Part shown: positions 17,764 to 57,779 of the stretch, in pieces
Numbering within the stretch: the first letter of the stretch is position 1
Layout of the letters: every line of letters begins with the position of its first letter
Virus record (IMG/VR): IMGVR_UViG_3300031413_000624
Length of the DNA stretch: 64,000 nt
Source of the DNA: a virus
Strand: one strand, 5' to 3'
Notes under the pieces: generated by a model
Told to the model about the DNA's origin: nothing
Database searches by the model: none
What the model saw: the letters and a program-made list of their open reading frames with translations, nothing else
Position numbers and translations under genes: made by a program

Positions 17764-18717
17764 ATGAAAGTATACAACGACACAGTTGTAATGACTGACT
17801 CCCTGATCCGCATGCTTGATGGATATCGCGCTGAACGAGGTTTTAACGCCTCAGAATGGGTTGAGCGTAAAGTTGCTCTCATCAACGCTTACTTCGCGCA
17901 GAGCGGCCTGTCAGGGGCTGTTGTAGGGGTTTCAGGAGGTATTGACTCCGCTGTTGCTCTTTCTCTTGTCGTGAAAGCATCACAGGTGGAAGACAGTCCA
18001 ATCAAGAAGATTGTTCCGATTCTTCTCCCCGCATTTTCCTACACAGGAGCTACCCGTCAGAACGAAGCTACAAACCGAGCAGAAAGCCTGTGCACAAAAC
18101 TTGGACTCGAAGCAGTCATCTTCCATCAGCTCACACCAATGGCTGAAATGATGAATGCAGAATTAGAGAACGTTTTGGGAATTCGGGCAACCCCTTGGGC
18201 TAAAGGCCAGTTAGTTGCATACACCCGAACCCCAATCCTGTACAGCACCTGCTCCATTCTCACGGACGCAGGATATCCAGCCTTAGTCATTGGAACTACA
18301 AATCTGTCAGAAGGTGGATACTTAGGTTATGTCGGTAAAGCCGCTGATGGCATGGTTGACTTACAGGTAGTGAGTGACTTGTACAAATCAGAAGTGTACC
18401 AAGTTGCGGAACTGCTAGAAGTACCAAACCTCATTATGAAAGCAACGCCAACAGGAGACATGTTTGACGGTCGGGATGACGAAACAGTGTTCGGAGCTTC
18501 CTACGACTTCGTGGAACTCTATCACCTCTGGCTGCAAAATGGCTCCGACCCTGAACTTCTGAAAGATGAAACATTCGCAGCAGGAGCGGCGAACCTTGAA
18601 AAGATGCACGCTTACAATGGTCATAAATATCTGTACGGTACACCATCAGTTCATTTGGATATCCTTCGTGCAGACATTCCTGGTGGTTGGAATAACAAAG
18701 CTTGGAGCGCTAAATAA
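17764..18717 (+). CDS. PP-loop ATP pyrophosphatase (NadE-like)
   Basis: SGGIDSAV PP-loop motif; AAAGGA RBS before 17764. Confidence 0.6.
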   Translation: MKVYNDTVVMTDSLIRMLDGYRAERGFNASEWVERKVALINAYFAQSGLSGAVVGVSGGIDSAVALSLVVKASQVEDSPIKKIVPILLPAFSYTGATRQNEATNRAESLCTKLGLEAVIFHQLTPMAEMMNAELENVLGIRATPWAKGQLVAYTRTPILYSTCSILTDAGYPALVIGTTNLSEGGYLGYVGKAADGMVDLQVVSDLYKSEVYQVAELLEVPNLIMKATPTGDMFDGRDDETVFGASYDFVELYHLWLQNGSDPELLKDETFAAGAANLEKMHAYNGHKYLYGTPSVHLDILRADIPGGWNNKAWSAK

Positions 18718-19457
18718 TGGCGACCAAATTTGTCAACCAAATTGACTTCACTATTCCAGCTATCCAACATGAAGTTGAAGTGGAGCCACTTCCTGAGTTA
18801 GACCGTTCAGCAGTGGTTATCCCTAACCTTATCCCAAGCAAAGAACGAGTTCATATCCTCCAAGAACTCAGTAAAGCGAACTGGCAGCCAGTATCCATCA
18901 CTGGAATGTCAGGTAACTGGAAGCCAGGGGATGAAATTGGGTCTTACCGAGCCTCAAACTACACACCAGAATACGCCACTGTATTATGGGACAGAATCAA
19001 ACACGCTTTCCCAACGGTTCGAGTGTTCAATCAGGAAGACAATACTGATTTTGATGACCATGAACTCTGGGAACCTGTTGGAGTTTCTCCACTGCTTCGT
19101 TTCATCAAATACGAAGATGGAGGCTGGCTTGTTGTTCACTATGACGCTCCATATGTTGAAGATGAGGACACTAGGACACTACAAAGCTTTGTTATCTACT
19201 TAGAACAGAGTCCCACGATTGCAGGTGGAGCAACTCGATACCTGCGAGACCCGCAAGCAGGGATTCCTATTGCTCAACGTATTTTAGATGACCAGAAACG
19301 TGCAGCAACCGAGGATGAAGTCCGGCTTCGTTTCACCCCTGAAAATGGAACAGGTGTCATCTTTGACCACAGACTTCTTCACGATGCTGCGCTCGTTCAG
19401 GGCGAAGGTCACAAAATTATTATCCGTACCGACATTATGTACAGGAAAGTCCGATGA
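18717..19457 (+). CDS. 2OG-Fe(II) oxygenase superfamily protein
   Basis: HYDAP (HxD) ... DHRLLH facial-triad arrangement; start/stop overlap with neighbours. Confidence 0.5.
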   Translation: MATKFVNQIDFTIPAIQHEVEVEPLPELDRSAVVIPNLIPSKERVHILQELSKANWQPVSITGMSGNWKPGDEIGSYRASNYTPEYATVLWDRIKHAFPTVRVFNQEDNTDFDDHELWEPVGVSPLLRFIKYEDGGWLVVHYDAPYVEDEDTRTLQSFVIYLEQSPTIAGGATRYLRDPQAGIPIAQRILDDQKRAATEDEVRLRFTPENGTGVIFDHRLLHDAALVQGEGHKIIIRTDIMYRKVR

Positions 19458-20965
19458 AAACAGACCGCTATTTTGATGCGTTATACGAACGCACTCACAG
19501 TGAACAGGATTTAACAACAGCTGGTTGGTTAGAAAAGCCAACACAAGTGAACCAGCAGTTACGGTATTACACAACGCCAGTTGATGCTATCCGTGATGCA
19601 GGCAAGGAAGAAGTCTCTGTTCTGTTTTACCCAGGATGTTTCGCCCCAGTGCATGAAGGTCATATCACTGCAATGCGCTTAGCCAAGGAAGCTGTCGAAG
19701 CGACAGGCGAAACAGTGGTAGCTGGTTTCTTCACACCAGACCATGATGACTACATTATGCGTAAAACGCATGATGAACGTTTCACAGCAGCGAACCGGGT
19801 AGAGCTTCTACATGCAGTAACTAAAACAGAAACATGGATGCAGGTAGACCCTTGGGCTGCTCAGTATGCTCCTACTGATTTGAACTTCACCACATTGTAT
19901 GATCGTTTGAATCAATACCTCAAACGTTGGGTACCAAATGTCAAAGTAAAGCTCTACATGGTGTTTGGTGGAGACAACTACATGTTCGCTAATGCTTTCA
20001 CTGAATATGGGTATGGGGTTTGCGTTCCTCGTGAAGGAGTTTCTATTGACTGGACCACAGTCCATCCTGATGCTCAAAAGCGTGTAGTTCTCAGTACGAA
20101 AAGCAGCACAAATCATTCATCCACAGCGGCCCGAGCAATGTACTCAAACCCTGCTGAAAAAGGTGGTCGGAGTACGATGGGTAAGCGCTACGTCCTTCGC
20201 AACGATTTAGATGCAGCATTTGAGAACACTACGGAGTACCCGAATTATCTTATCGCTCAGACTCTGCAGATTCTCTTCCACTCACATCTTCCAGAGGATA
20301 TCAGTGTCCAAACAGTTGATATTCATGACCAGTTCCAGCATCATCAGGAAAAAGCTGGGATCATTTCAATGGATTCATTTTGGAAAGCTGAATACAATCT
20401 TGACATTACCAGACTCTTCAATGCAGCCGGTGGCCAGAATCATCCATTACGGTACATCAACCGCCCAGGTTCCGATGATTTGCAAACACAAATCAAACGA
20501 ATCCCAGAAGGTGAATATGTACTTGCAGATGACGACATCGCTACTGGTGAAACCATGAAATTTGTTTCCAATGTGTTAGGCACTCACGGCATCAGAATTG
20601 TGGACACTCTAAGTCTTATCGATGAACTCAACACTGACCTGTACGATTTAGCTGACATGAGAGACTATGTGTTAGGGGCAAAGAATGGTGGGTTGACCGT
20701 TGTTGCTCCAAACGGTCAAGTGACACGAATGCCGTACTTTGCTTCCTATGTGAACGTTTCAGCAAGAACACGTATTCAGCCTAATAAAGCTCGCAGTTTC
20801 TCTATTGAAATTTGGAAGCTCAATCGCTCTTTGTACAAGAACAGTAGCCTTACCGTAGGAGACATCAAAGAGCATCAAGATTTCACCCTCTTTGGGTTCT
20901 CAGAGCAGATGCGGCTTGTTGAATTATGTGAGAAGCATTTAGAGCTGTTAGGTGTGCAAAGCTGA
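19454..20965 (+). CDS. nucleotidyltransferase (NMNAT-like, HxGH) fused to a type I phosphoribosyltransferase domain
   Basis: PVHEGH motif N-terminal; VLADDDIATGETM PRPP-binding motif C-terminal. Confidence 0.6.
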   Translation: MKTDRYFDALYERTHSEQDLTTAGWLEKPTQVNQQLRYYTTPVDAIRDAGKEEVSVLFYPGCFAPVHEGHITAMRLAKEAVEATGETVVAGFFTPDHDDYIMRKTHDERFTAANRVELLHAVTKTETWMQVDPWAAQYAPTDLNFTTLYDRLNQYLKRWVPNVKVKLYMVFGGDNYMFANAFTEYGYGVCVPREGVSIDWTTVHPDAQKRVVLSTKSSTNHSSTAARAMYSNPAEKGGRSTMGKRYVLRNDLDAAFENTTEYPNYLIAQTLQILFHSHLPEDISVQTVDIHDQFQHHQEKAGIISMDSFWKAEYNLDITRLFNAAGGQNHPLRYINRPGSDDLQTQIKRIPEGEYVLADDDIATGETMKFVSNVLGTHGIRIVDTLSLIDELNTDLYDLADMRDYVLGAKNGGLTVVAPNGQVTRMPYFASYVNVSARTRIQPNKARSFSIEIWKLNRSLYKNSSLTVGDIKEHQDFTLFGFSEQMRLVELCEKHLELLGVQS

Positions 20966-20982
20966 TACGATAGAACTTACTT

Positions 20983-21576
20983 ATGTTCGCTGTACTCACC
21001 GCCTTAGGCTTATCTGTTTCCGCAGGACTCAACGCGTACCTGCCGTTACTTGCTGTTGGTCTTCTCACCAAATACACTGATGTGTTTCAGCTTCCCAACG
21101 GATGGTCCTGGCTGAATCAAGACTGGGTGCTGATTCTATTCGGGTTACTTGCATTAGCTGAGTTTGTCGCAGATAAAGTTCCAGCGATTGACACATTCAA
21201 CGACATTATTCAAACAGTAGTACGCCCTTCATCAGGAGGTGTCGTATTTGCAGTAGGAATAGGTTCACATACTACTCCTATCACAAATTGGGATGCGTTC
21301 ATTCATTCACAAGCGTTTCCTAGCATTGTTGTAGGTGTGGTGATTGCATTGATTCCACATTTGATGAAGATGCTCATCCGTCCAGTCTTAAATGCAACAA
21401 CTGCTGGGTTAGCTACTCCGTTAGTGAGTTTCGGTGAAGATGTCATTTCGGTAGCATTGATTGCATTATCCATTTTCCTTCCTATCCTTGTCCCAGTAGC
21501 AGTAGTGCTACTCTTCATCATCGCTGTGCGAGTTATCAAACGGTTGCGCAGTAGGACGCAGGTGCAAACAGCATGA
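20983..21576 (+). CDS. polytopic membrane protein (DUF4126-like)
   Basis: Four or more TM helices. Confidence 0.45.
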   Translation: MFAVLTALGLSVSAGLNAYLPLLAVGLLTKYTDVFQLPNGWSWLNQDWVLILFGLLALAEFVADKVPAIDTFNDIIQTVVRPSSGGVVFAVGIGSHTTPITNWDAFIHSQAFPSIVVGVVIALIPHLMKMLIRPVLNATTAGLATPLVSFGEDVISVALIALSIFLPILVPVAVVLLFIIAVRVIKRLRSRTQVQTA

Positions 21577-22247
21577 GAGCATGTCAAGCTAAAAATCCAG
21601 AGACCTGTAAATACCACGGCTATGCTGTGTATGAGCAAAAACGGAATATGCAATCTCCTTCATGGACTACAGAAGAATCTTATGATTTCTTGACGATGCA
21701 TGGAGTAAATCTTCTTCCTCTTGGAACAGTGAAGAAGTGGGACTCAGAGCAGGATTATAAAGCATCATTCTATGAAGTTGAAAATGAATTAACTGGATTG
21801 TTCTCTGGTGGTGGGAGTGGTGAAGAGAAGATAGCTCTTATTGACAAAGACCTTCCTTTTGTTGTGAAATTCGCTGGAGACCCAGATTACCAGAATGGTG
21901 CAGATGGTTTATCCTCCACCTTCCAAGAGTATGTCGCAAGCCGCGATGGTTTGAACGGTCATGATGTAATGGCAAGAACTGAACTATTCTGGCATAAGAA
22001 TGGTTTCCCTATTATTGTTCAAGAAAAGCTGACCCACCTGACCCGTAAAGTGGTAACAGAGCTTGCTGAGCAATTGCCCTGGTTGCCAAAATCTTTCCAC
22101 TCATATGCTCAGATAGGACAAGATGGTTCTGGTAAATGGCGTATTTACGATTTGGATGCGGGAACGCTTATGGACTTCTACCCTGAAGAAACAGGTCAGA
22201 AAGTTCTTGACCAAGTATGGGATGAGTTTTTCCAATTGAAGAAATAG
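21573..22247 (+). CDS. hypothetical protein with N-terminal CQAKNPETCKYHG motif
   Basis: Cys-His motif family member; overlapped start. Confidence 0.5.
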   Translation: MRACQAKNPETCKYHGYAVYEQKRNMQSPSWTTEESYDFLTMHGVNLLPLGTVKKWDSEQDYKASFYEVENELTGLFSGGGSGEEKIALIDKDLPFVVKFAGDPDYQNGADGLSSTFQEYVASRDGLNGHDVMARTELFWHKNGFPIIVQEKLTHLTRKVVTELAEQLPWLPKSFHSYAQIGQDGSGKWRIYDLDAGTLMDFYPEETGQKVLDQVWDEFFQLKK

Positions 22248-25128: not shown

Positions 25129-25974
25129 ATGACCACTTTACAGAAGCACATCATTGAAACCCTCGGAGTGAAAGCGAAAGTCAACCCAGAGGAAGAGTTC
25201 CGCACTCGTGTAGACTTCCTCAAAGCTTTCACTAAAAATGCAGGAACACGTGGATTCGTCCTCGGGATCAGTGGAGGGCAGGATAGTGCTCTGGCTGGAT
25301 ACGTTGCTCAGACAGCTGTTCGTGAACTCCGTGATGAAACAGGCAAAGACTATGAATTCCTTGCCCTGCTCCTTCCATACGGTACACAGCGGGACGGGGA
25401 TGAAGCAGTAACCATCGCAAAAGACTTTATCAAAGCCGACCAGGTAATTGAATACAACATCAAAGACACTGTAGACGCTTTCGCAAACACCTTCAACACT
25501 ATTGCAGATGCTGACCCTGCAAACGGTGACAACCTTGCCGACTACCACAAAGGTAACGTCAAAGCACGTGTTCGCGCCATCACACAGTACGCATATGCTG
25601 GACAGCGACAGCTTCTGGTTGTTGGGACCGACCATGCAGCAGAAGCTGTCAGCGGCTTTTTCACGAAGTTCGGAGATGGTGCTGCTGACATTCTCCCTCT
25701 TAGCGGTTTGAACAAACGCCAGGGAAAAGAAGTGCTTCGCTTCCTGGGTGCTCCTGAGTTTGTTATCACTAAGGCTCCTACTGCTGACCTTTTGGACACT
25801 AACGCAGGTCAGGCTGATGAGACTGAACTTGGCATCACCTACGATGTGCTGGATGACTACCTTGAAGGCAAGACTGTCGCAGAAGCTGCTCAGCAGAAGA
25901 TTGAACTTCGTTACCTGGTGACTGAACACAAGCGTCAGCAGCCTGTTGACCCTTTTGCTGACTGGTGGAAGTAA
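25129..25974 (+). CDS. nadE: NH3-dependent NAD+ synthetase
   Basis: [12 protein letters not shown]-loop; length and overall pattern of NadE. Confidence 0.85.
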
Positions 25975-37489: not shown

Positions 37490-38971
37490 TTAGGCAGTTG
37501 CAATGCGAGCACGAGTGATAACAGTCTGCTCATCGCCATTGAATGTGTCCAAGTCTTTGATAGTTGCACTGGATACAGTAAGCATGTCGCCGGCTTTGAA
37601 CTCTTTCTCTCCGCTTGCCCACCATTTAAGTTCTTTTCCTTCATCAGTGGTCATAATAAGGAGAGTCTTGTAGCTGTCTCCGACATTAGGGATGTATGTT
37701 GGGATGAGCTGAGCTCGCTTTACTGTTACTGGCACGTTTCTGAGCTTATCGCCAATTTGACCAACATAACCTTGGGCTCTTGGTCGACTTTCACGTTCCT
37801 GGCGAGCTTGCTGCTTTTTCGCAGCAGCAATAACGGAAACAACGTAGCCAACATGTTTGTAAGAAACATACTCTTGTGAGAGAAGCGTCTTCATGTTACG
37901 ACCGTAATCATTATCCGTGTCAAAATGAGTGGTCTCTATTACGGAAGTCGCCGCGGCCTCATGGTCTTCAAGGTTGATATCGTTGTAACGGTTGTTATTG
38001 TTGGATGAGAAGAAGAAACTTTTCACTTCGGAGGCAGTAGAGTCTTGGCCTGTTTCTCTTTCAAGCATACGGGAACGATACTTCTCACCATTGTCTGAAA
38101 TGGCCAGAGCTGCGGCTACAACGGATTTTGTTGGCAGCATGCTGTCCTGGCCACCCCAACGACGTTCACCGCGGTCTAAGTAATCGTCACCTTCTTCTGG
38201 GTCATAGTTGAGCGCCCACAAAGCTTTCGGACGAACTCCTGAAAATGACTCTAAGCAGTTAGAACCGACCTGCTTGTATTCACCTGTGTCTTTGTTGCGA
38301 AGCAGGTAAGTTGATGAACGTCTACGATTACTTCCACAGTGGTCACATTCAAAATGTTCAGGGGCATAACCGTTGAGTTCCTGACCAGGAACAACACGGG
38401 TGAGCATGGCTCCATCTTCTGTTTTGTCTACAGCAGCAACAAAATCCCATCCTCCAACATGAAGCTCGGGATAAGTAAGGCTCATACGAACCATGTTAAA
38501 ACGGTGACCTTCGTTGTCTTCTTCAACGAAGTGTTCAACTTCATAGTCGAACCGCTCTTCAACTCCTGCGCGGGTCAGTTTTCTGTTCGCAATATCAATA
38601 CGGTGAACTGCTTCATCTAGCCTGGAAGCAGGGAAAACTGAAACGCCTTCTACCTTCTCTTCCACTGAGGCACGTAAACGTTCGCCATCTTCTAACAGCT
38701 GCTGGTATTTCTCTTTCTCAGTCCAGTCGTTGGTCTCAGCAACTTTGTTAGTGAAGAACTCTTGACCACTGTCTGTGGCTGCGTACTCTACGGAGGCTTC
38801 TTTGAGTTTTTCTGATAGAGTGTAACGATCTTGGATGTCAGTGGTCTCTTCTAACTGGGAAGATAAAGCACGGAACTTCTCTTCAACGCGATCTAAGTAA
38901 GAAGCGTGTGTTGCACCATGGTAGCGGCAGGCAGCTTTATTGATTGCTCTGCATTCACGTGTAGTAGTCAT
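37490..38971 (-). CDS. hypothetical 493-aa protein with N-terminal CRAINKAACRYHG motif
   Basis: Cys-His motif family; internal C-x2-C (HFECDHCG). Confidence 0.5.
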   Translation of the reverse strand: MTTTRECRAINKAACRYHGATHASYLDRVEEKFRALSSQLEETTDIQDRYTLSEKLKEASVEYAATDSGQEFFTNKVAETNDWTEKEKYQQLLEDGERLRASVEEKVEGVSVFPASRLDEAVHRIDIANRKLTRAGVEERFDYEVEHFVEEDNEGHRFNMVRMSLTYPELHVGGWDFVAAVDKTEDGAMLTRVVPGQELNGYAPEHFECDHCGSNRRRSSTYLLRNKDTGEYKQVGSNCLESFSGVRPKALWALNYDPEEGDDYLDRGERRWGGQDSMLPTKSVVAAALAISDNGEKYRSRMLERETGQDSTASEVKSFFFSSNNNNRYNDINLEDHEAAATSVIETTHFDTDNDYGRNMKTLLSQEYVSYKHVGYVVSVIAAAKKQQARQERESRPRAQGYVGQIGDKLRNVPVTVKRAQLIPTYIPNVGDSYKTLLIMTTDEGKELKWWASGEKEFKAGDMLTVSSATIKDLDTFNGDEQTVITRARIATA

Positions 38972-39094
38972 GTTCTATTTCTAACCAGCGAATCTCACAA
39001 AAAACCTTGATTAAGGTGTTTCGGTACGATATTATAAAGGTTGCCGTTATACATTTGTTATAATTATTTCCAATTATCCCTACAGAAACAATTT

Positions 39095-39808
39095 ATGAGT
39101 ACCACTTTACTGTCACCTATTTTTGCCATTTCGACTATTATTTCCACTGCCACTGTTCCGATCAACACTGTTCCAGCCCAGCAAGAAGTACCGACTGTTG
39201 ATACCAGTGTTATTTACCAGACAACCGAAGAAGACGCTCAAACATACAACGTCGCTTCAAACGTTACAGAAGAAGACACCTCCCGTGATTCTTATACAGT
39301 GAAAGAAGCCCCTAAGCCTGTCACAGCTACTCCGACAGCCGTTTCTTCCAAAACTACTTCTATTCCTATTCAACACTCAGCGTTGACACAATCTACTGCT
39401 GCTCAGCAGACAACCACTGCCGCCTCAGCATCTGGTACTACAAAAGAACGCATTGTTCAGTTAGCCCTTCAATATAAGGGAGTTCCATATGTGTTTGGTG
39501 GAGAGAACCCATCAGGTTGGGACTGCTCTGGTTACGTCAAGTGGGTTACCGCTAATGTAACTGGTATCAACTTCTCCCATGGTGTTAGTGCAGAAGCTCA
39601 CTCTCAGTACACTCACGAGGTAACTCGTGCAGCTGCACAGCCAGGTGACTTTGTTGTCTTCTCTGGCACCGGTGGTTCTGAATACCACATTGGAATTTAC
39701 TTAGGTAATGGACGTATGGTACATGCATCCAAGCCTGGTGATTTCACCAAAGAATCCATCATTGACTGGCCTGGAAGCAGTGTGCGTTTCTACTCATTGA
39801 ACGGCTAA
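39095..39808 (+). CDS. NlpC/P60 family peptidoglycan endopeptidase with signal peptide
   Basis: GWDCSGYVKW ... YHIGIY catalytic Cys/His; TATAAT at 39059 argues for the start at 39095. Confidence 0.7.
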   Translation: MSTTLLSPIFAISTIISTATVPINTVPAQQEVPTVDTSVIYQTTEEDAQTYNVASNVTEEDTSRDSYTVKEAPKPVTATPTAVSSKTTSIPIQHSALTQSTAAQQTTTAASASGTTKERIVQLALQYKGVPYVFGGENPSGWDCSGYVKWVTANVTGINFSHGVSAEAHSQYTHEVTRAAAQPGDFVVFSGTGGSEYHIGIYLGNGRMVHASKPGDFTKESIIDWPGSSVRFYSLNG

Positions 39809-39828
39809 CAACTCGTTAGTAATAGTGT

Positions 39829-40731
39829 ATGAGTACACAAACAAATCGCTGCCGAGCAAAGCACCCAGAAACATGTTGGAAGCACGGAACCGGGTTAGGC
39901 TTTGATGCCAACCGTGAAATCCGTCTTGTTATGAAACAAGATCAAGCTTTACACAGCAAGCATGACATCTTCATGAAAGCCATGAAAACATATGACAGTA
40001 CCCATCTGGCATCTGTTCTCATGGCTTTTGCTGAAAACTCCTCCACCGTCAATACCGAACGTTTCAAGAAAGCATTGCTTCTTGCTACTGATCTTCACAA
40101 GACTGACACTCGAGCTAACCGTGCGCATCATGACCGCACACCATACATCGAACACCCTCTTCGTAACACTCTTCGTATCGTACGATACGGCTGTAAAGAA
40201 GAAAGTGTCCTTGTTGGATCACTCCTCCATGACACCGTAGAGGACCATCCTTGGGAAATTGCACGTAACTACGCAAAAGAAGAACCACGTGATGAACACC
40301 ATGCTCGTGAAATTGCTTACGACTACATTCGTAAAACATACGGTAAACGAGCTGCAAAAATTGTTGAAGGCATGTCTAACCCAATTATTGAGAACAAGTA
40401 TATGCCAGCTGGTGAAAAGAACGTCATCTACCGTGACCATGTTCTTGAAGCAATTGAAGACCCAGATGTCGCTATCCCAAAGATTTCTGACTTCACTGAC
40501 AACGCTCTTTCCTTACACCACACCGAAGCTGGCATGTCAGCTACATCATTGTACAAGAAATCCACTAAGTATTTGATGGTTATTGACGGCATGATTTCAC
40601 GAGTCAAGCGAGGATATGTAACAAAAGACCTTCCTATCTCAGAAGAAGGTTATAAGAACATTCTCTTCCAGCTTGAAGAAGGCAAGCTACGTTTGCTGTT
40701 CCTTAATAGAAAATATACTCCTGTCAAATGA
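39829..40731 (+). CDS. RelA/SpoT-type HD hydrolase (small alarmone hydrolase-like) with N-terminal Cys-His motif
   Basis: TPYIEHPLRNTLRI and LLHDTVEDH match the SpoT/Mesh1 HD core; N-terminal CRAKHPETCWKHG. Confidence 0.7.
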   Translation: MSTQTNRCRAKHPETCWKHGTGLGFDANREIRLVMKQDQALHSKHDIFMKAMKTYDSTHLASVLMAFAENSSTVNTERFKKALLLATDLHKTDTRANRAHHDRTPYIEHPLRNTLRIVRYGCKEESVLVGSLLHDTVEDHPWEIARNYAKEEPRDEHHAREIAYDYIRKTYGKRAAKIVEGMSNPIIENKYMPAGEKNVIYRDHVLEAIEDPDVAIPKISDFTDNALSLHHTEAGMSATSLYKKSTKYLMVIDGMISRVKRGYVTKDLPISEEGYKNILFQLEEGKLRLLFLNRKYTPVK

Positions 40732-40961
40732 TGAGTATACTCCTTCATACAGATGGGCACGGTTCGTTCTGGCAAGAGTTTATCTCAATTGCTACGGACC
40801 CTGCCCATCTGTTATTCGAGCTGATCTTCTCAGTATTATTTGATGTAGTATTAGTCTCAGTCATTTGGGGTGTCATCATCAAGAAAATCATTATCCCCAA
40901 ATTAAAACGCGATGTTCATCGTGAAATTGATGCTGAACATGGGTTGAAGCCTCACGATTGA
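40728..40961 (+). CDS. small membrane protein
   Basis: ORF with one TM helix. Confidence 0.35.
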   Translation: MMSILLHTDGHGSFWQEFISIATDPAHLLFELIFSVLFDVVLVSVIWGVIIKKIIIPKLKRDVHREIDAEHGLKPHD

Positions 40962-42400
40962 TGAGCAGCTTTACTTCGTATAATTCCCCAGATGAATAAA
41001 CCTGTGGCAGTAACAGTGAGCAACAATCCAGTTACTGTAATAGCGGAATGGAATTGCAAATGGATGAGGGTACTTTCCATGGCTTTTCCAGTGAATACGT
41101 TAGCTGGGATGAAAGCAGATAAGATAGCTCCGGCTACTGTAATGCTTACAGCTGCACATATCTGTGAAATGGTATCAACCAGCGCCGAGCCTGTTGATGT
41201 GTGAGTATGGGGCAGTCCTCGGAAAACACTCATACCAGCAACTAAACCATTCACACGCACTCCTGCTGCGATGAGGATAAGGGATACCGCGATCCAGCCA
41301 TAGCTGATAGGGCTACCGAACGTGTAAACCAGCATGCCTACGATAATGGATAGCCCACTGTATAAAGAAGCTTTTTGATTACCGAAACGTTCTACTATTT
41401 TGTTGACCAGTGGACCAACAGCCAGCAACGTAATCACTTGTGGGAGTAGCCCTAATGCAGCGAGTACTGGACTCCAATGATAATCCAGTTGCAGTTGTAA
41501 CATCACAACATAGCCCAGTCCAGCTGTAATGATGCTGGTGCTTGCTTTGTACAGCAATCCACTAGAAACTAATGGTAGTCTCAAAAGACTAAATGGGATT
41601 AGAGGGTTTTGAGATTTTTTCTCTTGCTTTACGAAAAAGGCTCCAAATAACACTGCGCTTGCTGTGAGACTCCAGAATTCCCATGAGATAGCACCATACT
41701 GTGCAGCAGCGTCAAGGAGTAGCAAAACTGATACGATTGCTAATGTGCCAAAGGTACCTCCAGCTACATCTAAGGGCTTCCGAATACTTTTTTGATTTCG
41801 CCATTCAGGAAGGCTGAGATATAAACTGAGGAATGCTACAGCTGCAATAGGAATGTTGACCAGTATCAGAAACTCCCATGATGCAACTGCTAACACAGCC
41901 CCGCCAATAGTTGGTCCGATGCTCAGTCCGACCAACCCGACTGTTGAGATGAAAGTCATCGCCCGCATTTGCAGCGATTCACTATTGAACAGCTTGAAGG
42001 TTAGCGACAAAGTAAGAGGAGTTGTCATTGCTGCGGCTAAGCCCATCAGCGCCCTCACCGCTATCAGTTCATAGATGTTCGTGACATCTAAGACTAATAA
42101 GCTTGACACTCCGAGAAGTGCTAACCCACTCAGCATGAGCTTTTTGGGGCTGAATTGGTCAGCGATAGACCCGAATAACAGCATAAGACTTCCGAAGATG
42201 ACAGAGTAGGCACTAGTAGCGAGACTTAATGAGGAGGTAGAAGCATTGAGAGTTTTCCCAATAGTCGGTAACGCTACTGTCAATACTGAATTATCAAGCA
42301 TTTCAAACAGGAACACGATGGATAACCCTGTAAGAGCAAGCCAGTTCTGTTTGAGAGATTGGGGTTGTTCCACAATAAAATGTTTTTGGAGACGGTTCAT
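40952..42400 (-). CDS. MFS transporter, 14-TM DHA2-type
   Basis: MFS motif LDNSVLTVALPTI; 482 aa, about 14 TM helices. Confidence 0.8.
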   Translation of the reverse strand: MNRLQKHFIVEQPQSLKQNWLALTGLSIVFLFEMLDNSVLTVALPTIGKTLNASTSSLSLATSAYSVIFGSLMLLFGSIADQFSPKKLMLSGLALLGVSSLLVLDVTNIYELIAVRALMGLAAAMTTPLTLSLTFKLFNSESLQMRAMTFISTVGLVGLSIGPTIGGAVLAVASWEFLILVNIPIAAVAFLSLYLSLPEWRNQKSIRKPLDVAGGTFGTLAIVSVLLLLDAAAQYGAISWEFWSLTASAVLFGAFFVKQEKKSQNPLIPFSLLRLPLVSSGLLYKASTSIITAGLGYVVMLQLQLDYHWSPVLAALGLLPQVITLLAVGPLVNKIVERFGNQKASLYSGLSIIVGMLVYTFGSPISYGWIAVSLILIAAGVRVNGLVAGMSVFRGLPHTHTSTGSALVDTISQICAAVSITVAGAILSAFIPANVFTGKAMESTLIHLQFHSAITVTGLLLTVTATGLFIWGIIRSKAAHQS

Positions 42401-42529
42401 TAGTATGCACCTTAGAAATTTTGTAAGGTGACAGAAATACTTTGACCGTGTACGTGGATGTGCTTTTTCTTCACATCTTTTTACCTTGTAGTTATTATTC
42501 TAACATGAATAGTGAAGAGAAATGTAATA

Positions 42530-42551
42530 CGCGTGAAAAACGCGTGAAAAA
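42530..42551. repeat. tandem 11-bp direct repeat cgcgtgaaaaa x2
   Basis: Seen in the divergent promoter region between the MFS gene and 42619. Confidence 0.5.
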
Positions 42552-42618
42552 CACAACCTTTGGTTTATATTTTTACCGATAATATTAGCACTTTTAGCAG
42601 TGTCGTAAGGGGAAGCGT

Positions 42619-44025
42619 ATGATTGCTAAGCTTATTAAATCGTCACGAGGTGCTATTGACCTGGCCTCTATACTCGTAGCGGTCATTATTGTTGGCCTTA
42701 TTTCTGGTGTTGTTTCTGTTAGCGTCTTTGCTGTCATTCCATGGACTCATGATAACGCCGCTAAGACTCATCTTGGCTCTATCGCTGTAGCGCAAGCTTC
42801 TTACAAAGGAGCCTATGAAAAATACGGGGACTATAAAGAATTAGTCAAAGAAGAGCTTCTTCCTGTACGAGAAAAAACTTGCTCAGTTACTTCAAACCAA
42901 GGTAGAACCTATACCTCAGCCACACAATCACCTACAGGTAAAGTCTTCATCAATACGAATACTGTTTCTCAGCCATGGCAAGCAGCGGTCGGTGAAACTA
43001 CCTGTTTAGGGACAGTGAAAGAAAACAACGAATTAGAGCCACTGCCACCAGCTACTGAACCAACTCCTACGGTTCCAACGGTAACTCCGAAACCAGGTAC
43101 GGAAAGCAGTTTTACACTGCGTTGCGATAAAACAACTTCAATGCTTTTACCAACAGCATCAGTAAATGCATCAGCGCAATGGAGTGATGGTGTGGAACAG
43201 TCCGCGACAACGGGTTCGTTCAATCAACGAACACTTGCCGCAGGCGTGACCTATAAAGTTACGATTACTGGGACGTTTGGGGTGCTGAGTATGCTTCCCC
43301 TGAATATTGACCAAAAGAATTGTGTTCGGTCGATGGATTTATGGGGTTCTGCCAGTGCTACTGTTGTAGCTGATTATGCTTTTGCCGGGGCTAATAATTT
43401 GACTTCTATCCCTCAGAACATTCCAGCAACAGTCACCTCAGTAGCGGGTATGTTCCAATCTAATAAGACATTCAATCAGGATTTGAGTACATGGGATACT
43501 GCAAACATCAAAAATATGAGCAATATGTTCAATGACTCAATATACACGAAGTCATTGAATAGTTGGAACGTTTCTAATGCTACAAATCTCAGTTTTATGT
43601 TTGCAAGTTCCTCCTACAACCAACCATTAGATAATTGGAAAACGGCTAATGTTCTTAGCATGGAGGGGATGTTCCAGAACAATCTTGTGTTCAATCAAAA
43701 TATTTCCAGCTGGAATACCACAAATTTGACTTCCACTGCATCTATGTTTGCAGGAGCTAAACTGTTCAATCAGCCATTGAACACTTGGACCGTGAATAAT
43801 GTTGTCAATATGAATAGCATGTTCAAAAATGCTACAAGCTTCAATCAGCCATTGAACAACTGGAATACATCTAAGGTGACAAACGTCAGTGGTATGTTCT
43901 TGAATGCCTCATCATTTAGTCAAAATCTTAGTGGATGGAAACTCCCTAATATTCTTGTATTCCTTGATTTTGCTCTGGGAAGTAAACTCAACATACTTCA
44001 ATTACCAAAACTGCCAATCTTATAG
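42619..44025 (+). CDS. surface protein with pilin-like N-terminal anchor and six tandem DUF285/BspA-like 26-aa repeats
   Basis: N-terminal hydrophobic helix; FNQ-L-W-T-N-MF repeats x6. Confidence 0.55.
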   Translation: MIAKLIKSSRGAIDLASILVAVIIVGLISGVVSVSVFAVIPWTHDNAAKTHLGSIAVAQASYKGAYEKYGDYKELVKEELLPVREKTCSVTSNQGRTYTSATQSPTGKVFINTNTVSQPWQAAVGETTCLGTVKENNELEPLPPATEPTPTVPTVTPKPGTESSFTLRCDKTTSMLLPTASVNASAQWSDGVEQSATTGSFNQRTLAAGVTYKVTITGTFGVLSMLPLNIDQKNCVRSMDLWGSASATVVADYAFAGANNLTSIPQNIPATVTSVAGMFQSNKTFNQDLSTWDTANIKNMSNMFNDSIYTKSLNSWNVSNATNLSFMFASSSYNQPLDNWKTANVLSMEGMFQNNLVFNQNISSWNTTNLTSTASMFAGAKLFNQPLNTWTVNNVVNMNSMFKNATSFNQPLNNWNTSKVTNVSGMFLNASSFSQNLSGWKLPNILVFLDFALGSKLNILQLPKLPIL

Positions 44026-44035
44026 AAATTTAATT

Positions 44036-44062
44036 CTCTGCCCCCAGTAGGAGGGGGCAGAG
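44036..44062. terminator. GC hairpin
   Basis: ctctgccccc / gggggcagag. Confidence 0.5.
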
Positions 44063-44146: not shown

Positions 44147-45268
44147 ATGGATAGTGTACCATCCCCAGTTAAAACAATTTCATTAGTATTTCAAAGTTCC
44201 CGCGCTGCCATAGACTTAGCCTCCATCATGGTTGGTGTCATCATCATTGGCCTTATTGGTAGTGTCATTGGCGCAACGGTTTTTGCAGTCATTCCCTGGG
44301 CGCAGGACAATGCAGCCCGAGCCTCCCTTTCCCAAGTCCGAACAGCAGAAGATGCTCAAAGAGGACTCAAAGAAAAATATGCTGGGCATGAAGCACTCAG
44401 CGATAATGGATTTTTACAAAGCCAACCAGGTCTAGCTGTTCGCACTAACGACGCTGGTACCTGCTATGTTGGCGTTATTGTTTCAGCAACAGGAAACATG
44501 TTCTGGACTTCGGACAAAACAGGCATAGCTGCTTATAAGAGCACAGCGCTACCAACCAGTCCTTGCTTAGATGTCACAGGACCAGGTAACTTAGCTGCTG
44601 TAACTTCACCTACTACTGGTGGGACAGCTGCTTCTATTGCTTCGAAAGTTACAGAAGACGGTGCTGGAAGTTATGAAACAAACGGTTCAGGCGGTTCTTC
44701 AACCTCATTATCTGGTCGTGCATGGTATGCCTACTATCGTGGCTCTTTCAACGAAAAGCAAAATGCTTCTCTTCCCTTACTCAAACAGCTTACTGGAGAA
44801 CAAGTAACACCAACAACATCAGCTCAGCATACAAACTTGTGGCTCAACGTCTACCACGTTCATGCTTATGCTGATGGCAAAGAACTGAAAGTATCCGGAG
44901 ATAATGATGCAGTAGACCATCCATACACAGGGTTTGACATCAATATTTCTTACGATAAAATCAATAACACCATTTTGTATTACTTCCATAACAACGCAGG
45001 GACTTCTGTGATTGGTGATAATAGCGATGCAACTATGACCAGGTTATGGAAAAATGGCTATGTTACATTTGAAGTGCCAGGATACACAGGAACAAACGTA
45101 TTGCATTTCAATGCTCAAAACCCTCGTTCATCTGACCCAAGTAACACTAACCGTCTTTCCGATTGGACAGGAACACTTAAGTGCGGTGAGGGATACGGTA
45201 ATGATAATAACTGTGCAAGTTTGAGCAGTTACGGATACAACTGGCAGAGCATTATTCCTAAATCCTAA
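44147..45268 (+). CDS. secreted/anchored protein, paralogous N-terminus to the 42619 product
   Basis: AIDLASIMVGVIIIGLIGSV... about 60% identical to the N-terminus of the upstream gene. Confidence 0.5.
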   Translation: MDSVPSPVKTISLVFQSSRAAIDLASIMVGVIIIGLIGSVIGATVFAVIPWAQDNAARASLSQVRTAEDAQRGLKEKYAGHEALSDNGFLQSQPGLAVRTNDAGTCYVGVIVSATGNMFWTSDKTGIAAYKSTALPTSPCLDVTGPGNLAAVTSPTTGGTAASIASKVTEDGAGSYETNGSGGSSTSLSGRAWYAYYRGSFNEKQNASLPLLKQLTGEQVTPTTSAQHTNLWLNVYHVHAYADGKELKVSGDNDAVDHPYTGFDINISYDKINNTILYYFHNNAGTSVIGDNSDATMTRLWKNGYVTFEVPGYTGTNVLHFNAQNPRSSDPSNTNRLSDWTGTLKCGEGYGNDNNCASLSSYGYNWQSIIPKS

Positions 45269-45457: not shown

Positions 45458-46066
45458 TTGGAACAGTACCCTTCAATTGATAAGATTATTCGCAATACTC
45501 ACATCTATGCTTACGATAAGTTAGATGGCTCCAACATTCGTGCTGAGTGGACTCGTAAGACTGGGTTCACAAAATTCGGTTCCCGCCGTCAGCTCATTGA
45601 CGAAAGTCACAGTTTGCTGGGTGAAGCTATCCCGTTGTTTAACGACAAATATGCAGATGCCTTAGATGAAATTTTCAGAAAGCAGAAATATCAGAAAGCA
45701 ACAGCATTCTTTGAGTTCTATGGGGAGAACAGCTTCGCAGGATTCCATGAAGATGAGCCTCACGATGTGACACTTTTCGATGTACATATTTATAAGCAAG
45801 GTCTGATGTCACCTCAGGAGTTTAACAAGGTCTTTAAACACGTTGATACCGCGCCCTTGCTTTTTCAAGGGAAGCCAACTGCTGAGTTTGTTGAGTCTGT
45901 GCAGGCAGGCACCTTAGAAGGCATGACCTTTGAGGGTGTTGTCTGCAAAGCAGGTTATGATAATCGGAACAAGTTAGCTTCATTCAAAATCAAGAATAAA
46001 GCTTGGTTAACTCGCTTGAAAGATAAGTGTGGGAATGATGAGAAAATGTTCACCGCGTTAGCATAA
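45458..46066 (+). CDS. small KxDG nucleotidyltransferase (RNA/DNA ligase-like)
   Basis: YDKLDGSNIRAEW motif I; 202 aa. Confidence 0.5.
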   Translation: MEQYPSIDKIIRNTHIYAYDKLDGSNIRAEWTRKTGFTKFGSRRQLIDESHSLLGEAIPLFNDKYADALDEIFRKQKYQKATAFFEFYGENSFAGFHEDEPHDVTLFDVHIYKQGLMSPQEFNKVFKHVDTAPLLFQGKPTAEFVESVQAGTLEGMTFEGVVCKAGYDNRNKLASFKIKNKAWLTRLKDKCGNDEKMFTALA

Positions 46067-46165: not shown

Positions 46166-47605
46166 ATGTGTAGAAATAAAGAAGAAGGCGGTCGCCGCTG
46201 TACCGATCACAATGCATTCGGACAGCAGATCAGAAACCTTCAAGCGAAAAAGCAGTATCATGCAAAATATGGTCACACTGACAAAGTAACTTCGGTTGTT
46301 GAAGAAATGGATGCTCTTCGTGACAAGAAGCAGCATCTCTTAGAAGATGGAGGAACTGTTCTTCCATACACGATGCCATTGACCCCGAATGCGGAAAGAG
46401 TCCTCAACCAGCTCCGTGAAGACGGGTATGAGCCTTATGTTGTTGGAGGAAGTGTTCGTGACGCTCTTCTCGGATTAGACTCAAAGGATGTTGACATTGA
46501 AGTCTATAAAGCTACACCAGAAGAAGTCATTGCTTCCCTTCGTAAAATTGGTCAAGTGGATGAAGTGGGTAAATCATTTGGTGTCTTGAAAATCCAAATT
46601 GGGGGAGAAGACTTTGATGTCTCTCTTCCTCGTAAAGACTCTAAAATTGGTGACGGACACAGAGGGTTCACTGTTGAAGTAACTCCTGAACTCTCACTCC
46701 ATGAAGCAACTGCTCGTCGTGATTTCACCATCAATGCTCTCATGTATGACAACGAAATGGGATTCATCGTTGACAAGCACGGTGGTTTGAAAGATTTGGA
46801 GAAAGGTCATCTCCGTCATGTTTCAGAAGCTTTTGATGAGGACCCACTCCGTGTTCTTCGTGGAGTACAGATGGCTTCACGTTTTGATATGGAACTCCAC
46901 CCAGACACAGTAGTCAAAGCTCAAACACTGAAAGACCAGTTCGGTGATTTGGCTCGAGAGCGAGTCCAAACTGAATTCCAGAAGCTGTACCAGAAAGGTA
47001 AAGCTCCTCACAAAGCGTTCAAGCTTTTGCAGGATACAGGTTGGGACGCAAACTTCTCTGGTGTTGCAGAAGTGAATGGAAAATCTCTGCGTCGTAATCT
47101 GCAAAGAACTCAGGAGTTGACTGACCAAGGAGTCATCCCTAAGGAGAAAGGTGCATACATCCTTTCAGCGAACATTGCATCTCATCTGAATGATAAAGAT
47201 GCAAGAAACTTCTTGACATACACTACTGTTGGTGATGATTTGAAGAACAAGTCATACAACCTTTCTCGTGTTGAGCTACCAGTGAAGCAAGGAAAAGCTT
47301 CTTTGCGAGCATGGGCAAAAGGCATGCCTCGCCACGTCACCATTCAAGACTGGGTTTTACTCAGTAAAGCCAAAGGTGACAAGGAAGTAGCAGAGCGTAT
47401 TGAACGCAAAGCAGAAAAACTTGGCATTTTGCACAGCCCTGAATCTGACATGGTATCAGGAGATGATGTACTTGCTGCTTTCCCTGAACGTAAACCAGGT
47501 CGTTGGATGAAAGAAGCCTTAGATGCAACTCGTAACGCTCAGTACTCTGATGTGTTCCGTGACCGCGAAAAAGGTATTGCCTGGGTCAAAGCAAACATTA
47601 GCTGA
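46166..47605 (+). CDS. cca: CCA-adding tRNA nucleotidyltransferase with N-terminal Cys-His motif
   Basis: GGSVRDALLGLDSKDVDIEV polymerase-beta motif; RRDFTINAL; N-terminal MCRNKEEGGRRCTDH. Confidence 0.8.
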   Translation: MCRNKEEGGRRCTDHNAFGQQIRNLQAKKQYHAKYGHTDKVTSVVEEMDALRDKKQHLLEDGGTVLPYTMPLTPNAERVLNQLREDGYEPYVVGGSVRDALLGLDSKDVDIEVYKATPEEVIASLRKIGQVDEVGKSFGVLKIQIGGEDFDVSLPRKDSKIGDGHRGFTVEVTPELSLHEATARRDFTINALMYDNEMGFIVDKHGGLKDLEKGHLRHVSEAFDEDPLRVLRGVQMASRFDMELHPDTVVKAQTLKDQFGDLARERVQTEFQKLYQKGKAPHKAFKLLQDTGWDANFSGVAEVNGKSLRRNLQRTQELTDQGVIPKEKGAYILSANIASHLNDKDARNFLTYTTVGDDLKNKSYNLSRVELPVKQGKASLRAWAKGMPRHVTIQDWVLLSKAKGDKEVAERIERKAEKLGILHSPESDMVSGDDVLAAFPERKPGRWMKEALDATRNAQYSDVFRDREKGIAWVKANIS

Positions 47606-57191: not shown

Positions 57192-57779
57192 ATGACAAAG
57201 GGTTTGCTTATCGTTGACGTGCAGAACGATTTTATTGAAGGGGGTAGCCTGGCAGTCGCAGGAGGAGAGAAAGTCGCTCTAACGCTTGCAGAGCACCTCC
57301 TGGATGCTGATTACCATGCGCTCATCACCACTCAGGACTGGCACATTGAGCCTGGAAACCATTGGGCAGAAACTCCCGACTATGTGGACACCTGGCCTGT
57401 GCATTGCGCTGCAAACACTGCTGGTGCATCGGTACGCCCTGAGCTGGCGGCTGCCATTGTTTCCAAGGTCAGCGAACAGCGAAGCCTTCGGTATTTGCGC
57501 ATCGTCAAGGGTGAGTATGAAGCAGCTTACTCAGGTTTTGAAGGCCGCGACTTTCTTGGAGGGAATGAGAAGGTTCCTACCCTTATCCGTGAGCTTGGTG
57601 TAGATGAACTGGACATTGTAGGACTGGCGACAGACCATTGTGTTCGCGCTACTGTTCTGGACGCTCTGAAAGCGGGATTCAAGGTAAACGTCCTCACCGA
57701 CTATGTTGCAGGTGTCGACCCTGAGCGCTCCAAAGCAGCTCTTGCTGAAATGGAAACAGCAGGCGCAACTCTCGTCTAA
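57192..57779 (+). CDS. pncA: isochorismatase-family hydrolase, nicotinamidase (PncA)-like
   Basis: LLIVDVQNDF; catalytic GLATDHCV. Confidence 0.7.
   Translation: MTKGLLIVDVQNDFIEGGSLAVAGGEKVALTLAEHLLDADYHALITTQDWHIEPGNHWAETPDYVDTWPVHCAANTAGASVRPELAAAIVSKVSEQRSLRYLRIVKGEYEAAYSGFEGRDFLGGNEKVPTLIRELGVDELDIVGLATDHCVRATVLDALKAGFKVNVLTDYVAGVDPERSKAALAEMETAGATLV

Follow-up and report, generated by a model that had tools for sequence, protein, structure and literature searches.

The gene at positions 39829-40731 (+ strand) of the 64,000-nucleotide stretch of DNA analyzed here, called the window below, encodes a protein that resembles the HD hydrolase of SpoT and Mesh1, and it raises the question of what such an enzyme hydrolyzes and what it does for the element that carries it. 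The gene probably encodes a single-domain metal-dependent 3'-(pyro)phosphohydrolase, that is, a small alarmone hydrolase, to which we ascribe by inference a role during infection and which carries a separate tag module.

The open reading frame comprises 300 codons and a stop; no earlier start than its ATG is available, as the second and third codons before it are stops. A preliminary description of this DNA had assigned TPYIEHPLRNTLRI and LLHDTVEDH to the core shared by SpoT, Mesh1 and the small alarmone hydrolases, and rightly so: both are present, and TPYI-HP and LLHDTVED are identical in human MESH1 (3nr1) in a pairwise alignment. The first of these stretches (aa 104-117; 40138-40179, +) aligns with TPYINHP of MESH1 and contains the first metal-binding histidine, H109, within its PYI-HP motif; Y106, I107, H109, P110, L111, N113 and R116 are invariant in the 29 sequences of the family. 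LLHDTVEDH (aa 132-140; 40222-40248, +), also invariant in the 29 sequences, supplies the HD metal ligands H134 and D135 and, three residues past the HD, the catalytic pair E138-D139 (HDxxED). The fourth metal ligand, D221, is found together with N225 in KISDFTDN (aa 218-225; 40480-40503, +), the equivalent of KLADKLDN in Mesh1 and KLADRLHN in Rel; the family profile aligns it with KLADKLDNL of 3nqw, SSADKLHNL of 7qoe and KVADRLHN of 5xnx, and its residues K218, D221, D224 and N225 are invariant. The metal-binding set as a whole (H109, H134, D135 and D221) aligns with its equivalents in MESH1, Rel and 7qoe, and the catalytic residues are invariant over the 29 homologues, which are 32-71% identical to the window protein. 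Every catalytic His, Asp and Glu of the single-domain SpoT/Mesh1-type hydrolase that had been proposed is therefore in place. The product has the all-helical HD fold of the RSH type in an AF2 model with a pLDDT of 91, and sequence and model together establish this fold along with the full metal-binding set, the E138-D139 pair and a Mesh1-like D-x-x-D-N motif. The protein is apparently an active, if divergent, hydrolase of the SpoT/Mesh1 type, and by homology its metal would be Mn2+.

The divergence is considerable. As a single sequence the protein scores 20.9 bits against Pfam HD (PF01966; cut-off 22) and 18.1 bits against HD_4 (PF13328; cut-off 27.2), and since both scores fall under the gathering cut-offs the protein is placed in a divergent subfamily of about 250 aa. 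The best PDB match of the single sequence in phmmer has an E-value of 0.003, and identity to characterized small alarmone hydrolases is only 14-24%. The comparison that the preliminary description had called for, against the RelA_SpoT HD domain and Mesh1, gives clear matches when a profile of the 29 sequences is used: solved structures of a small alarmone hydrolase, Rel and Mesh1 are matched at E-values of 1e-13 to 1e-8, with the Leptospira small alarmone hydrolase 7qoe at 1.4e-13 across both halves of the protein and the Rel, Mesh1 and RelH structures at 1e-10 to 1e-8. On these sequence grounds the RSH-type match is well beyond chance. HD_4 is matched at E<=0.01 by 21 of the 29 family members (best 4e-9), and the subfamily thus sits at the edge of that model, still within the superfamily. 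The top Foldseek match of the structure model is the human MESH1-NADPH complex, and BFVD holds many viral proteins of small-alarmone-hydrolase type with the same fold. At E<=1e-30 the hydrolase family forms a group of its own of 389 representative clusters. Members of the subfamily occur in Microbacterium jumbo phages, where they are annotated "SpoT-like", and in Microbacteriaceae. A search of cultured phages for DNA nearly identical to the 36-46 kb region of the window found no match. A second HD gene of the window, at 30182-30754, was considered as a paralogue and rejected; its product resembles class-I phosphodiesterases, with an hhalign probability of 1.4% against the hydrolase family.

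The protein is a hydrolase only: it has no synthetase domain, its Pfam matches are HD and HD_4 alone, and its match to the NCBIfam model spoT_relA is limited to positions 1-58 of 687. Tag, HD core and helices account for all 300 aa in the model. Three elements are added in the subfamily: a helix at the N terminus, 20 aa inserted beside the active site and, at the C terminus, a long hairpin. The insertion (aa 141-160; 40249-40308, +; about 20 aa) is family-specific and separates the VED motif from the "FG..V..V" helix; in every PDB match it shows up as a gap between two aligned stretches, with profile positions 140-161 left unmatched, and the structure model places helices at 141-148 and 156-171. 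The C-terminal hairpin (aa 238-295; 40540-40728, +), conserved in the subfamily, consists of helices 238-265 and 272-295 modeled at pLDDT >94, with K247 and Y248 invariant in the 29 sequences; it is longer than the hairpin of canonical small alarmone hydrolases of 180-200 aa. The scan for promoters and terminators around the gene gave nothing above shuffled expectation.

The closest functional precedents are PaSpo of Salmonella phage SSU5 and PbcSpo of phage PVP-SE1, which are likewise phage-encoded, single-domain RSH-type HD proteins with no adjacent toxin and have the same catalytic motif set; their proposed role is the bypass of growth arrest caused by alarmones or toxic synthetases (PMC7229694). 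They differ in being about 180-220 aa long and in lacking an N-terminal Cys/His tag, and the window protein is set apart from them by description, as a separate subfamily of about 250 aa with the additions listed above. The structurally characterized enzymes of Leptospira levettii (7QOE) and Corynebacterium glutamicum (RelH, 7QOC/7QOD) are only 20-24% identical to the window protein, which has about 110 extra residues, tag included. Metazoan MESH1 (3NR1, 5VXA, 3NQW) is 21% identical overall; it has 179 aa and no extensions, and its physiological substrate is debated between ppGpp, NADPH and tRNA-PP. Proteins of the same subfamily, 39-40% identical over aa 50-231, are found in Microbacterium phage A3Wally (gp271) and in Big4, Zooman and Cece, cultured phages of about 190 kb, where they are annotated by similarity only as "SpoT-like ppGpp synthesis/degradation protein". 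These proteins have no N-terminal tag, and their tblastn match ends at aa 231, short of the C-terminal hairpin.

We favor the view that, during infection by a phage-like element of about 0.88 Mb, the small alarmone hydrolase would strip the 3'-pyrophosphate from (p)ppGpp and (p)ppApp, with pyrophosphorylated tRNA CCA ends as a possible further substrate. Removal of alarmones would turn off the stringent response, and it would also turn off growth arrest by toxic synthetases of the CapRel, PhRel or FaRel type. The preliminary description had correctly stated that such enzymes antagonize toxic synthetases and act on tRNA CCA ends. The small alarmone hydrolases of PVP-SE1 and SSU5 neutralize all tested toxic alarmone synthetases (2020, PMC7229694), small alarmone hydrolases remove pyrophosphate from tRNA CCA ends, and MESH1 and ATfaRel restore aminoacylation of pyrophosphorylated tRNA (both bioRxiv 10.1101/2021.04.30.441581). 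Because phage hydrolases that neutralize toxic synthetases were demonstrated experimentally in 2020, the window enzyme adds to a known kind of counter-defense enzyme. An "HD-alarmone PDEase" has also been catalogued in jumbo phages, in the same functional category and listed as a counter-nucleotide-signal defense; the parts of this 2021 survey available to us describe neither the architecture of the window subfamily nor its N-terminal tag (PMC7824862).

If the enzyme does counter toxic synthetases, it probably does not do so as part of a toxin-antitoxin pair. The window ORFs scanned, a set that includes both flanks but not some small ORFs, contain no RelA_SpoT synthetase domain, and in this set the gene has no adjoining toxic small alarmone synthetase of the kind that defines a type IV antitoxin such as ATfaRel. 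The bacterial homologues P0120 and P0115 also have no toxic synthetase as a neighbor and are orphans in housekeeping contexts. Characterized orphan small alarmone hydrolases are promiscuous, with NADPH among the substrates of these enzymes (PMC9765508), and the window enzyme is probably promiscuous as well; candidate substrates inferred for it are (p)ppGpp, (p)ppApp, pyrophosphorylated tRNA and NADPH.

The modeled fold is equally compatible with NADPH and other 2'/3'-phosphorylated nucleotides, and one might ask whether the protein is instead a Mesh1-like NADP(H) 2'-phosphatase, converting NADPH and NADP+ to NADH and NAD+ for the element's own NAD+ economy and having nothing to do with alarmone signaling. 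The best Foldseek match, as noted, is MESH1 in complex with NADPH, and the D-x-x-D-N motif follows the KLADKLDN pattern of Mesh1 and not the DRLHN of long RSH proteins. The window encodes two NAD synthetase-like proteins, an NMNAT-like protein and a nicotinamidase-like isochorismatase, a PnuC-like YgjV gene lies 2.7 kb upstream of the hydrolase gene, and the A3Wally homologue sits in a block of NAD-salvage genes with NaPRT, PnuC and an adenylyltransferase. An orphan bacterial small alarmone hydrolase hydrolyzes NADPH and controls NADH levels (PMC9765508), and large gut phages with full NAD+ pathways have been described (PMC11662467). However, the NAD genes are scattered across the whole window and are not specifically beside the hydrolase gene, and enzymes that hydrolyze NADPH also cleave alarmones, so that the NADP(H) reaction is not an exclusive explanation. 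As a replacement for the alarmone role we consider it unlikely.

A role in RNA 3'-end healing is more doubtful still. Here the protein would remove a 3'-phosphate, a 2',3'-cyclic phosphate or a 3'-pyrophosphate from cleaved or modified tRNA, in concert with the CCA enzyme, the PNKPs and the RNA ligases, and would have no role on free-nucleotide alarmones. The window does encode an RNA-repair set of two PNKPs, two Rnl1-like proteins, one Rnl2-like protein and one CCA-adding tRNA nucleotidyltransferase (46166-47605, +; Pfam PolyA_pol 9e-24, phrog_2244 1e-58), tRNA 3' ends are acted on by small alarmone hydrolases, and RNA-repair enzymes (RlaP and an RNA-ligase-like protein) are among the other carriers of the tag. 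A short tRNA nucleotidyltransferase gene directly adjoins the hydrolase gene in A3Wally, where it follows it, and in loci L016 and L017; the distance is 0.6 kb in locus L035, and in the lineage of the window the CCA and Rnl2-like genes lie 2.3-5.4 kb from the hydrolase gene, with the CCA gene 5.4 kb downstream in the window itself and 2.3 kb away in relatives without an insertion. The earlier proposal of a suite aimed at tRNA 3' ends rests on co-location, which a wider count does not put clearly above baseline: a CCA gene occurs within 10 kb in 9 of the 79 retrieved loci that encode an HD relative, approximately the frequency expected for any 20 kb taken at random from a jumbo phage, and direct adjacency is confined, among the 79 loci, to the Microbacterium-phage lineage and one other locus. 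The link between hydrolase and CCA enzyme is only suggestive. Moreover, two PNKP phosphatases are already present for 3'-phosphate and cyclic ends, and the known hydrolases that act on tRNA-PP also cleave alarmones.

The infection role presupposes that the gene is phage-borne, as the preliminary description had stated, and this part of the claim holds as likely and not beyond that, since the window ORFs that were scanned include no structural phage gene (capsid, terminase or tail). The surrounding DNA has the appearance of a very large phage, rich in the RNA-repair and NAD genes that are typical of such phages. Neighboring genes strongly match phage-only families (phrog_2319 at 2e-57, phrog_505 at 9e-85, phrog_562 at 4e-61 and phrog_2244 at 1e-58), the window encodes an Alt-like ADP-ribosyltransferase besides the PNKP, Rnl1 and CCA enzymes, and a relative lies beside rIIA/rIIB-like and ribonucleotide reductase genes. 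A housekeeping orphan hydrolase on a small bacterial chromosome or megaplasmid, with no counter-defense role, is highly improbable: the contigs of 0.83-0.88 Mb that carry the gene, one of them the 880,603-bp contig k141_538707 of ENA ERZ27247428, do exceed 735 kb, the size cited for the largest phage genome, IMG/VR contains no member of the lineage, the window contains genes for DnaK, a ClpB-like protein with a Clp_N domain (27677-30175), GyrA, GyrB and an MFS pump, and the bacterial homologues are chromosomal orphans, but against this stand the phage-only matches and the Alt-like and rII-like genes, 64 kb without a tRNA gene, no ribosomal or core metabolic gene among the ORFs scanned, and the presence of more distant family members both in cultured phages and on viral contigs of 136-375 kb in IMG/VR. 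A search with the neighboring MFS gene against 185,579 species genomes returned only a 28%-identical match and hence no clue to the host.

The second feature of the small alarmone hydrolase is its N terminus. The preliminary description had recognized a family motif there, and this motif, CRAKHPETCWKHG (aa 8-20; 39850-39888, +), of the form C-x-A-K-x-P-x-T-C-x-x-H-G, is indeed also carried N-terminally by the products of three other window ORFs. These encode an Alt-like ADP-ribosyltransferase with CYAKNPDTCKNHG (32385-33293, +; Pfam ADPrib_exo_Tox 4e-19, phrog_802 Alt-like), a 493-aa protein of the phage family phrog_2319 (E 1.7e-57) with the variant CRAINKAACRYHG (37490-38971, -), and a 224-aa protein without assigned function or Pfam/PHROG match with CQAKNPETCKYHG (21573-22247, +). 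The 13-residue consensus, C-x-A-K-[ND]-P-x-T-C-x-x-H-G, starts 4-12 residues past the initiating Met. Related contigs, which reach 0.79 Mb, have the tag on 33 unrelated protein clusters; ADP-ribosyltransferase, Nudix, RlaP, RNA-ligase-like and GNAT enzymes are among them. The tagged set also takes in at least 25 families without assigned function. Other members of the hydrolase family carry related Cys/His N-terminal modules, [FY]H[IV]NPxTG..CxA..CP[FY]G..H[FY] and MCYxxGPRCxxH, and these may point to a general, modular system.

Synonymous codons differ among the copies of the tag in the window, arguing that selection acts on the protein; conservation at the RNA or DNA level was rejected on the same evidence. 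A Sec, Tat or lipoprotein signal was also rejected, on composition: polar residues (S, T, K, R) precede the first Cys, there is neither an RR motif nor an L-x-x-C lipobox, and position counts reveal no hydrophobic stretch further on. Residues 1-20 are modeled at low confidence (pLDDT 48-60). The tag is covered by no Pfam model or paper found: Pfam scans of the tag and of a longer HCCH-type module at permissive E-values gave nothing meaningful, and full-text literature searches with tag peptide strings returned no paper. The strict DNA pattern of the tag, in N-only and N/D versions, had 0 hits in IMG/VR. The 50-aa tag-bearing N terminus and the longer module had no tblastn match in cultured phages, probably because these queries are too short, and a 37-sequence tag alignment run against a large protein database yielded only 102 candidates and returned 6 short proteins.

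The tag may be a separate module common to many host-directed enzymes of these genomes, and most likely it confers a common handling or docking property. A more specific proposal, put forward tentatively and with less than even confidence, is that it is an undescribed shared leader or docking knuckle that marks host-directed enzymes of phage-like genomes of 0.7-0.9 Mb for a common fate. Tagged proteins could be packaged into the capsid and injected along with the DNA, which would have the alarmone hydrolase in place from the onset of infection; or they could dock in a metal-dependent manner onto a single hub, for example RNA, the ribosome or a chaperone of the phage. The capsid-targeting sequences of phage T4 provide a parallel for the tag, being short N-terminal peptides on unrelated proteins, including the injected ADP-ribosyltransferase Alt, that lead to a common destination. 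They have no Cys/His motif, are cleaved by the prohead protease and share no sequence similarity with the tag; they serve as an analogy only.

The hydrolase represents a further, very divergent lineage of phage small alarmone hydrolases, and it extends these enzymes to a genome of about 0.88 Mb, perhaps one of the largest of phage-like type on record. Its preference among alarmones, tRNA-PP and NADPH is a question that it shares with most small alarmone hydrolases. The N-terminal tag is potentially the more valuable feature. If it is true that one peptide directs dozens of unrelated enzymes to a shared destination or partner, the tag would provide a sequence rule for the effector arsenal of giant genomes, many of whose proteins are currently without annotation, and a handle on how very large phages deliver or organize their counter-defense enzymes.

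The gene at 39829-40731 (+), 300 codons plus a stop, lies exactly where the preliminary description had placed it, and its start and N terminus are unambiguous because stop codons sit 2 and 3 codons 5' of the ATG. Single-sequence searches gave matches of weak significance: Pfam HD and HD_4 reached 20.9 and 18.1 bits (below the cut-offs of 22 and 27.2), the NCBIfam spoT_relA match (E 5e-10) was confined to model positions 1-58, and PDB phmmer returned Lmo0812 at 0.003 and MESH1 at 0.012. The motifs TPYIEHPLRNTLRI (aa 104-117) and LLHDTVEDH (aa 132-140) had been called near-identical to the SpoT/Mesh1 core, accurately so, since TPYI-HP and LLHDTVED are identical in human MESH1 in pairwise alignments. 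A large protein database contains 222 homologues, and in an alignment of 28 of these (32-71% identity to the window protein) the invariant columns include R95, R98, H109, H134, D135, E138, D139, K218, D221, D224 and N225. This set represents the RSH (RelA/SpoT-homologue) hydrolase signature, with metal-binding H...HD...D, a catalytic ED pair and, later in the sequence, K-x-x-D-x-x-D-N. When the profile of the family alignment was compared with solved structures, it matched the Leptospira levettii small alarmone hydrolase 7qoe (both halves, E 1.4e-13), M. tuberculosis Rel (E 9e-11), Drosophila and human Mesh1 (E 2-3e-10), C. glutamicum RelH (E 2e-8) and Rel_Seq 1vj7 (E 2e-8), with KISDFTDN of the window protein lining up with KLADKLDN of Mesh1. 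Because the catalytic columns are invariant and the profile matches solved structures, the protein belongs to the hydrolase-only RSH type and its active site is intact. The family originally proposed was thus the right one, with the catalytic His and Asp residues all present.

The window enzyme is a divergent addition to the known phage small alarmone hydrolases. Unlike the canonical enzymes of 180-200 aa, it has an N-terminal extension (aa 1 to ~50), an additional pre-core helix with invariant K53, an insertion of ~20 aa directly after VEDH, and a long C-terminal helical hairpin in which K247 and Y248 are invariant. Its subfamily is large, with 389 representative clusters recovered at E<=1e-30 when the profile was searched exhaustively, rising to 1215 at E<=1e-10 and to 9723 at E<=1e-3. 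Pfam HD_4 is matched by 21 of 29 family members.

Published work shows that every toxic alarmone synthetase tested is neutralised by stand-alone phage small alarmone hydrolases (PVP-SE1, SSU5; PMC7229694), and that tRNA carrying a pyrophosphate at its CCA end regains aminoacylation with MESH1 and ATfaRel (10.1101/2021.04.30.441581). One survey counts an "HD-alarmone PDEase" among jumbo-phage counter-defences (PMC7824862). By analogy with these published phage hydrolases, the window enzyme most likely hydrolyses 3'-pyrophosphorylated nucleotides, perhaps also tRNA, and would thereby prevent alarmone-based growth arrest. A real rival, though one compatible with this role, is that it acts as an NADP(H) phosphatase, since orphan small alarmone hydrolases also hydrolyse NADPH (PMC9765508) and NAD genes are abundant in the window. 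None of the window ORFs scanned is a nearby synthetase gene, which counts against a toxin-antitoxin role. Of the Microbacteriaceae homologues, two are orphans with housekeeping surroundings and a third is on a phage-like contig.

The preliminary description had also suggested that the hydrolase belongs to a suite of enzymes directed at tRNA 3' ends. The window carries an unusually redundant RNA-repair set of six genes within 43 kb: two T4 Rnl1-like ligases, two PNKPs, one Rnl2-like ligase and a CCA-adding enzyme (4990-6120 (-), 13186-14088, 16058-17371, 34439-35482, 45458-46066 and, for the CCA gene, 46166-47605). A CCA gene directly adjoins the hydrolase homologue in the Microbacterium-phage lineage (L001, L016, L017), in whose cultured phages the homologue is annotated "SpoT-like" and lies immediately 5' of the tRNA nucleotidyltransferase. 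The distance is 0.6 kb at locus L035, 2.3-5.4 kb in the window lineage, and 3.5-5 kb at L032 and L072/L074. Such co-location occurs in 9 of the 79 fetched loci encoding an HD relative, roughly what we estimate for 20 kb taken at random from a CCA-encoding jumbo phage, so that the functional link is weak and membership of the hydrolase in the suite is unproven.

The gene is likely phage-borne. Several neighbours give very strong matches to phage-only PHROG families (phrog_2319 1.7e-57, phrog_505 9e-85, phrog_562 4e-61, phrog_2244 1e-58), rIIA-like, rIIB-like and ribonucleotide reductase genes adjoin a relative of 44% identity (532-kb contig), and family members at 32-40% identity come from IMG/VR viral contigs (136-375 kb) and from cultured Microbacterium phages of ~190 kb. 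The window also encodes DnaK, a ClpB/C-like ATPase, GyrB, GyrA, an Alt-like ADP-ribosyltransferase, a DNA methylase and an amidoligase; there are no tRNA genes in the 64 kb, and no capsid, terminase or tail genes among the ORFs scanned. The window lineage was not found in IMG/VR. An identical protein is present on an 880,603-bp ENA contig and close variants occur on contigs 828-883 kb long; in all, the same or an at least 90%-identical protein (one 90% cluster) is encoded on independent contigs measuring 880,603, 881,636, 883,042, 858,429 and 828,331 bp, and relatives at 48-71% identity lie on contigs of 715-791 kb. The source genome thus appears to be ~0.88 Mb, exceeding the 735 kb that one paper cites for the largest phage genome (PMC11662467), and could be that of a phage or of another giant element. 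That paper describes rumen "NAD-jumbo phages" of 714-717 kb, which the 715-725-kb relatives seem to resemble in size and gene content, the sole basis of the comparison. A likeness to them is also seen in the NAD+ metabolism genes dispersed across the window, namely two NAD-synthetase-like genes, an NMNAT-like gene (cytidylyltransferase fold), a PnuC-like YgjV membrane protein gene (36398-37117 (-)) and a nicotinamidase-like isochorismatase gene, the other four lying at 17707-18717, 19454-20965, 25129-25974 and 57192-57779.

Directly 3' of the hydrolase gene, a block of ~3.3 kb (40748-44040) contains a membrane ORF of 77 aa, the gene for an MFS efflux pump of the DHA2 type (-) and that for a protein combining DUF285/BspA-like repeats with a pilin-like N terminus. 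It is replaced by 185 bp in the otherwise co-linear relative L002 (82-84% identical), and it is no assembly artefact, since the 880-kb ENA contig also carries it; it appears to be a recent transporter-carrying insertion or deletion. The adjacent proteins 42619-44025 and 44147-45268 share a pilin-like hydrophobic N-terminal segment, SSR[GA]AIDLASI[LM]V[AG]VII[VI]GLI..., one having DUF285 repeats and the other no database match. A 49-bp stretch (36243-36291) matches L002 at 100% in inverted orientation and is therefore a perfect palindrome; located just upstream of the 3' end of the leftward YgjV gene, in the gap after rightward ORFs ending at 36063 and 36243, it probably forms a terminator hairpin that works in both directions. 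Another HD-superfamily gene, unrelated to the hydrolase (30182-30754 (+), 190 aa) and flanked by the ClpB/C-like ATPase and an Rv2179c-like 3'-5' exoribonuclease, has the class-I cyclic-nucleotide phosphodiesterase motifs YHNxxH...HDYxH, and its product may degrade cyclic-nucleotide signals.

The N-terminal motif mentioned in the preliminary description was confirmed as a 13-residue tag, C-x-A-K-[ND]-P-x-T-C-x-x-H-G, at the extreme N terminus of the hydrolase (CRAKHPETCWKHG, aa 8-20, 39850-39888 (+)) and three other window proteins: the Alt-like ADP-ribosyltransferase (CYAKNPDTCKNHG, 32421-32459 (+)), a 493-aa phrog_2319 protein (CRAINKAACRYHG, 38915-38953 (-)) and a 224-aa protein of unassigned function (CQAKNPETCKYHG, 21582-21620 (+)). 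The copies are written in different codons, so selection acts on the peptide. No Shine-Dalgarno-like sequence precedes the starts of the tagged genes inspected (39795-39828, 21552-21572, 38972-38983), which may be informative about the host's mode of translation initiation.

A strict back-translated pattern of the tag (~40 bits, with about one chance match expected by our estimate) had no match in IMG/VR and 57 in metagenome contigs (loci L080-L136). These contigs are related and up to 0.79 Mb long; a 725-kb contig accounts for eight of the matches and a 789-kb contig for five, and the first Cys follows a Met by 4-12 residues in 53 of the 57. After trimming of the tag, the proteins fall into 33 clusters without mutual similarity. 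Some cluster representatives could be assigned, as a NUDIX hydrolase (1.7e-17), an RNA-repair nucleotidyltransferase (RlaP), an RNA-ligase-like protein and, weakly, a GNAT enzyme, whereas many had no match at all. Tagged enzymes overall include Nudix, RlaP, RNA-ligase-like, GNAT-like, ADP-ribosyltransferase and HD proteins.

Among the 238 hydrolase-family members in hand, 84 carry the tag, at least 22 a longer module ([FY]H[IV]NPxTG-x3-4-C-x-A-x4-5-C-P-[FY]-G...H[FY]) and a few MCYxxGPRCxxH, while 84 have no extension; examples of Cys/His modules other than the tag include P0159, P0163, P0189, P0194 and P0233, and P0188, P0199, P0204 and P0237. All three types share a C-x(6-8)-C core, followed by x2-H in the tag and the MCY type and by P-[FY]-G, with His residues further out, in the longer module, a possible HCCH knuckle. 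None of the three matched a Pfam model, and the tag peptide strings did not occur in searchable papers. The tag region is modelled at low confidence, and positions beyond its H-G show no conservation. An export signal was rejected for the tag, which lacks a hydrophobic core, a twin-arginine motif and a lipobox. The tag would fit a small, putatively metal-binding docking knuckle, or a targeting signal common to these proteins that might, by analogy with T4 Alt, direct them into the capsid for injection. It is this shared N-terminal tag that deserves follow-up.
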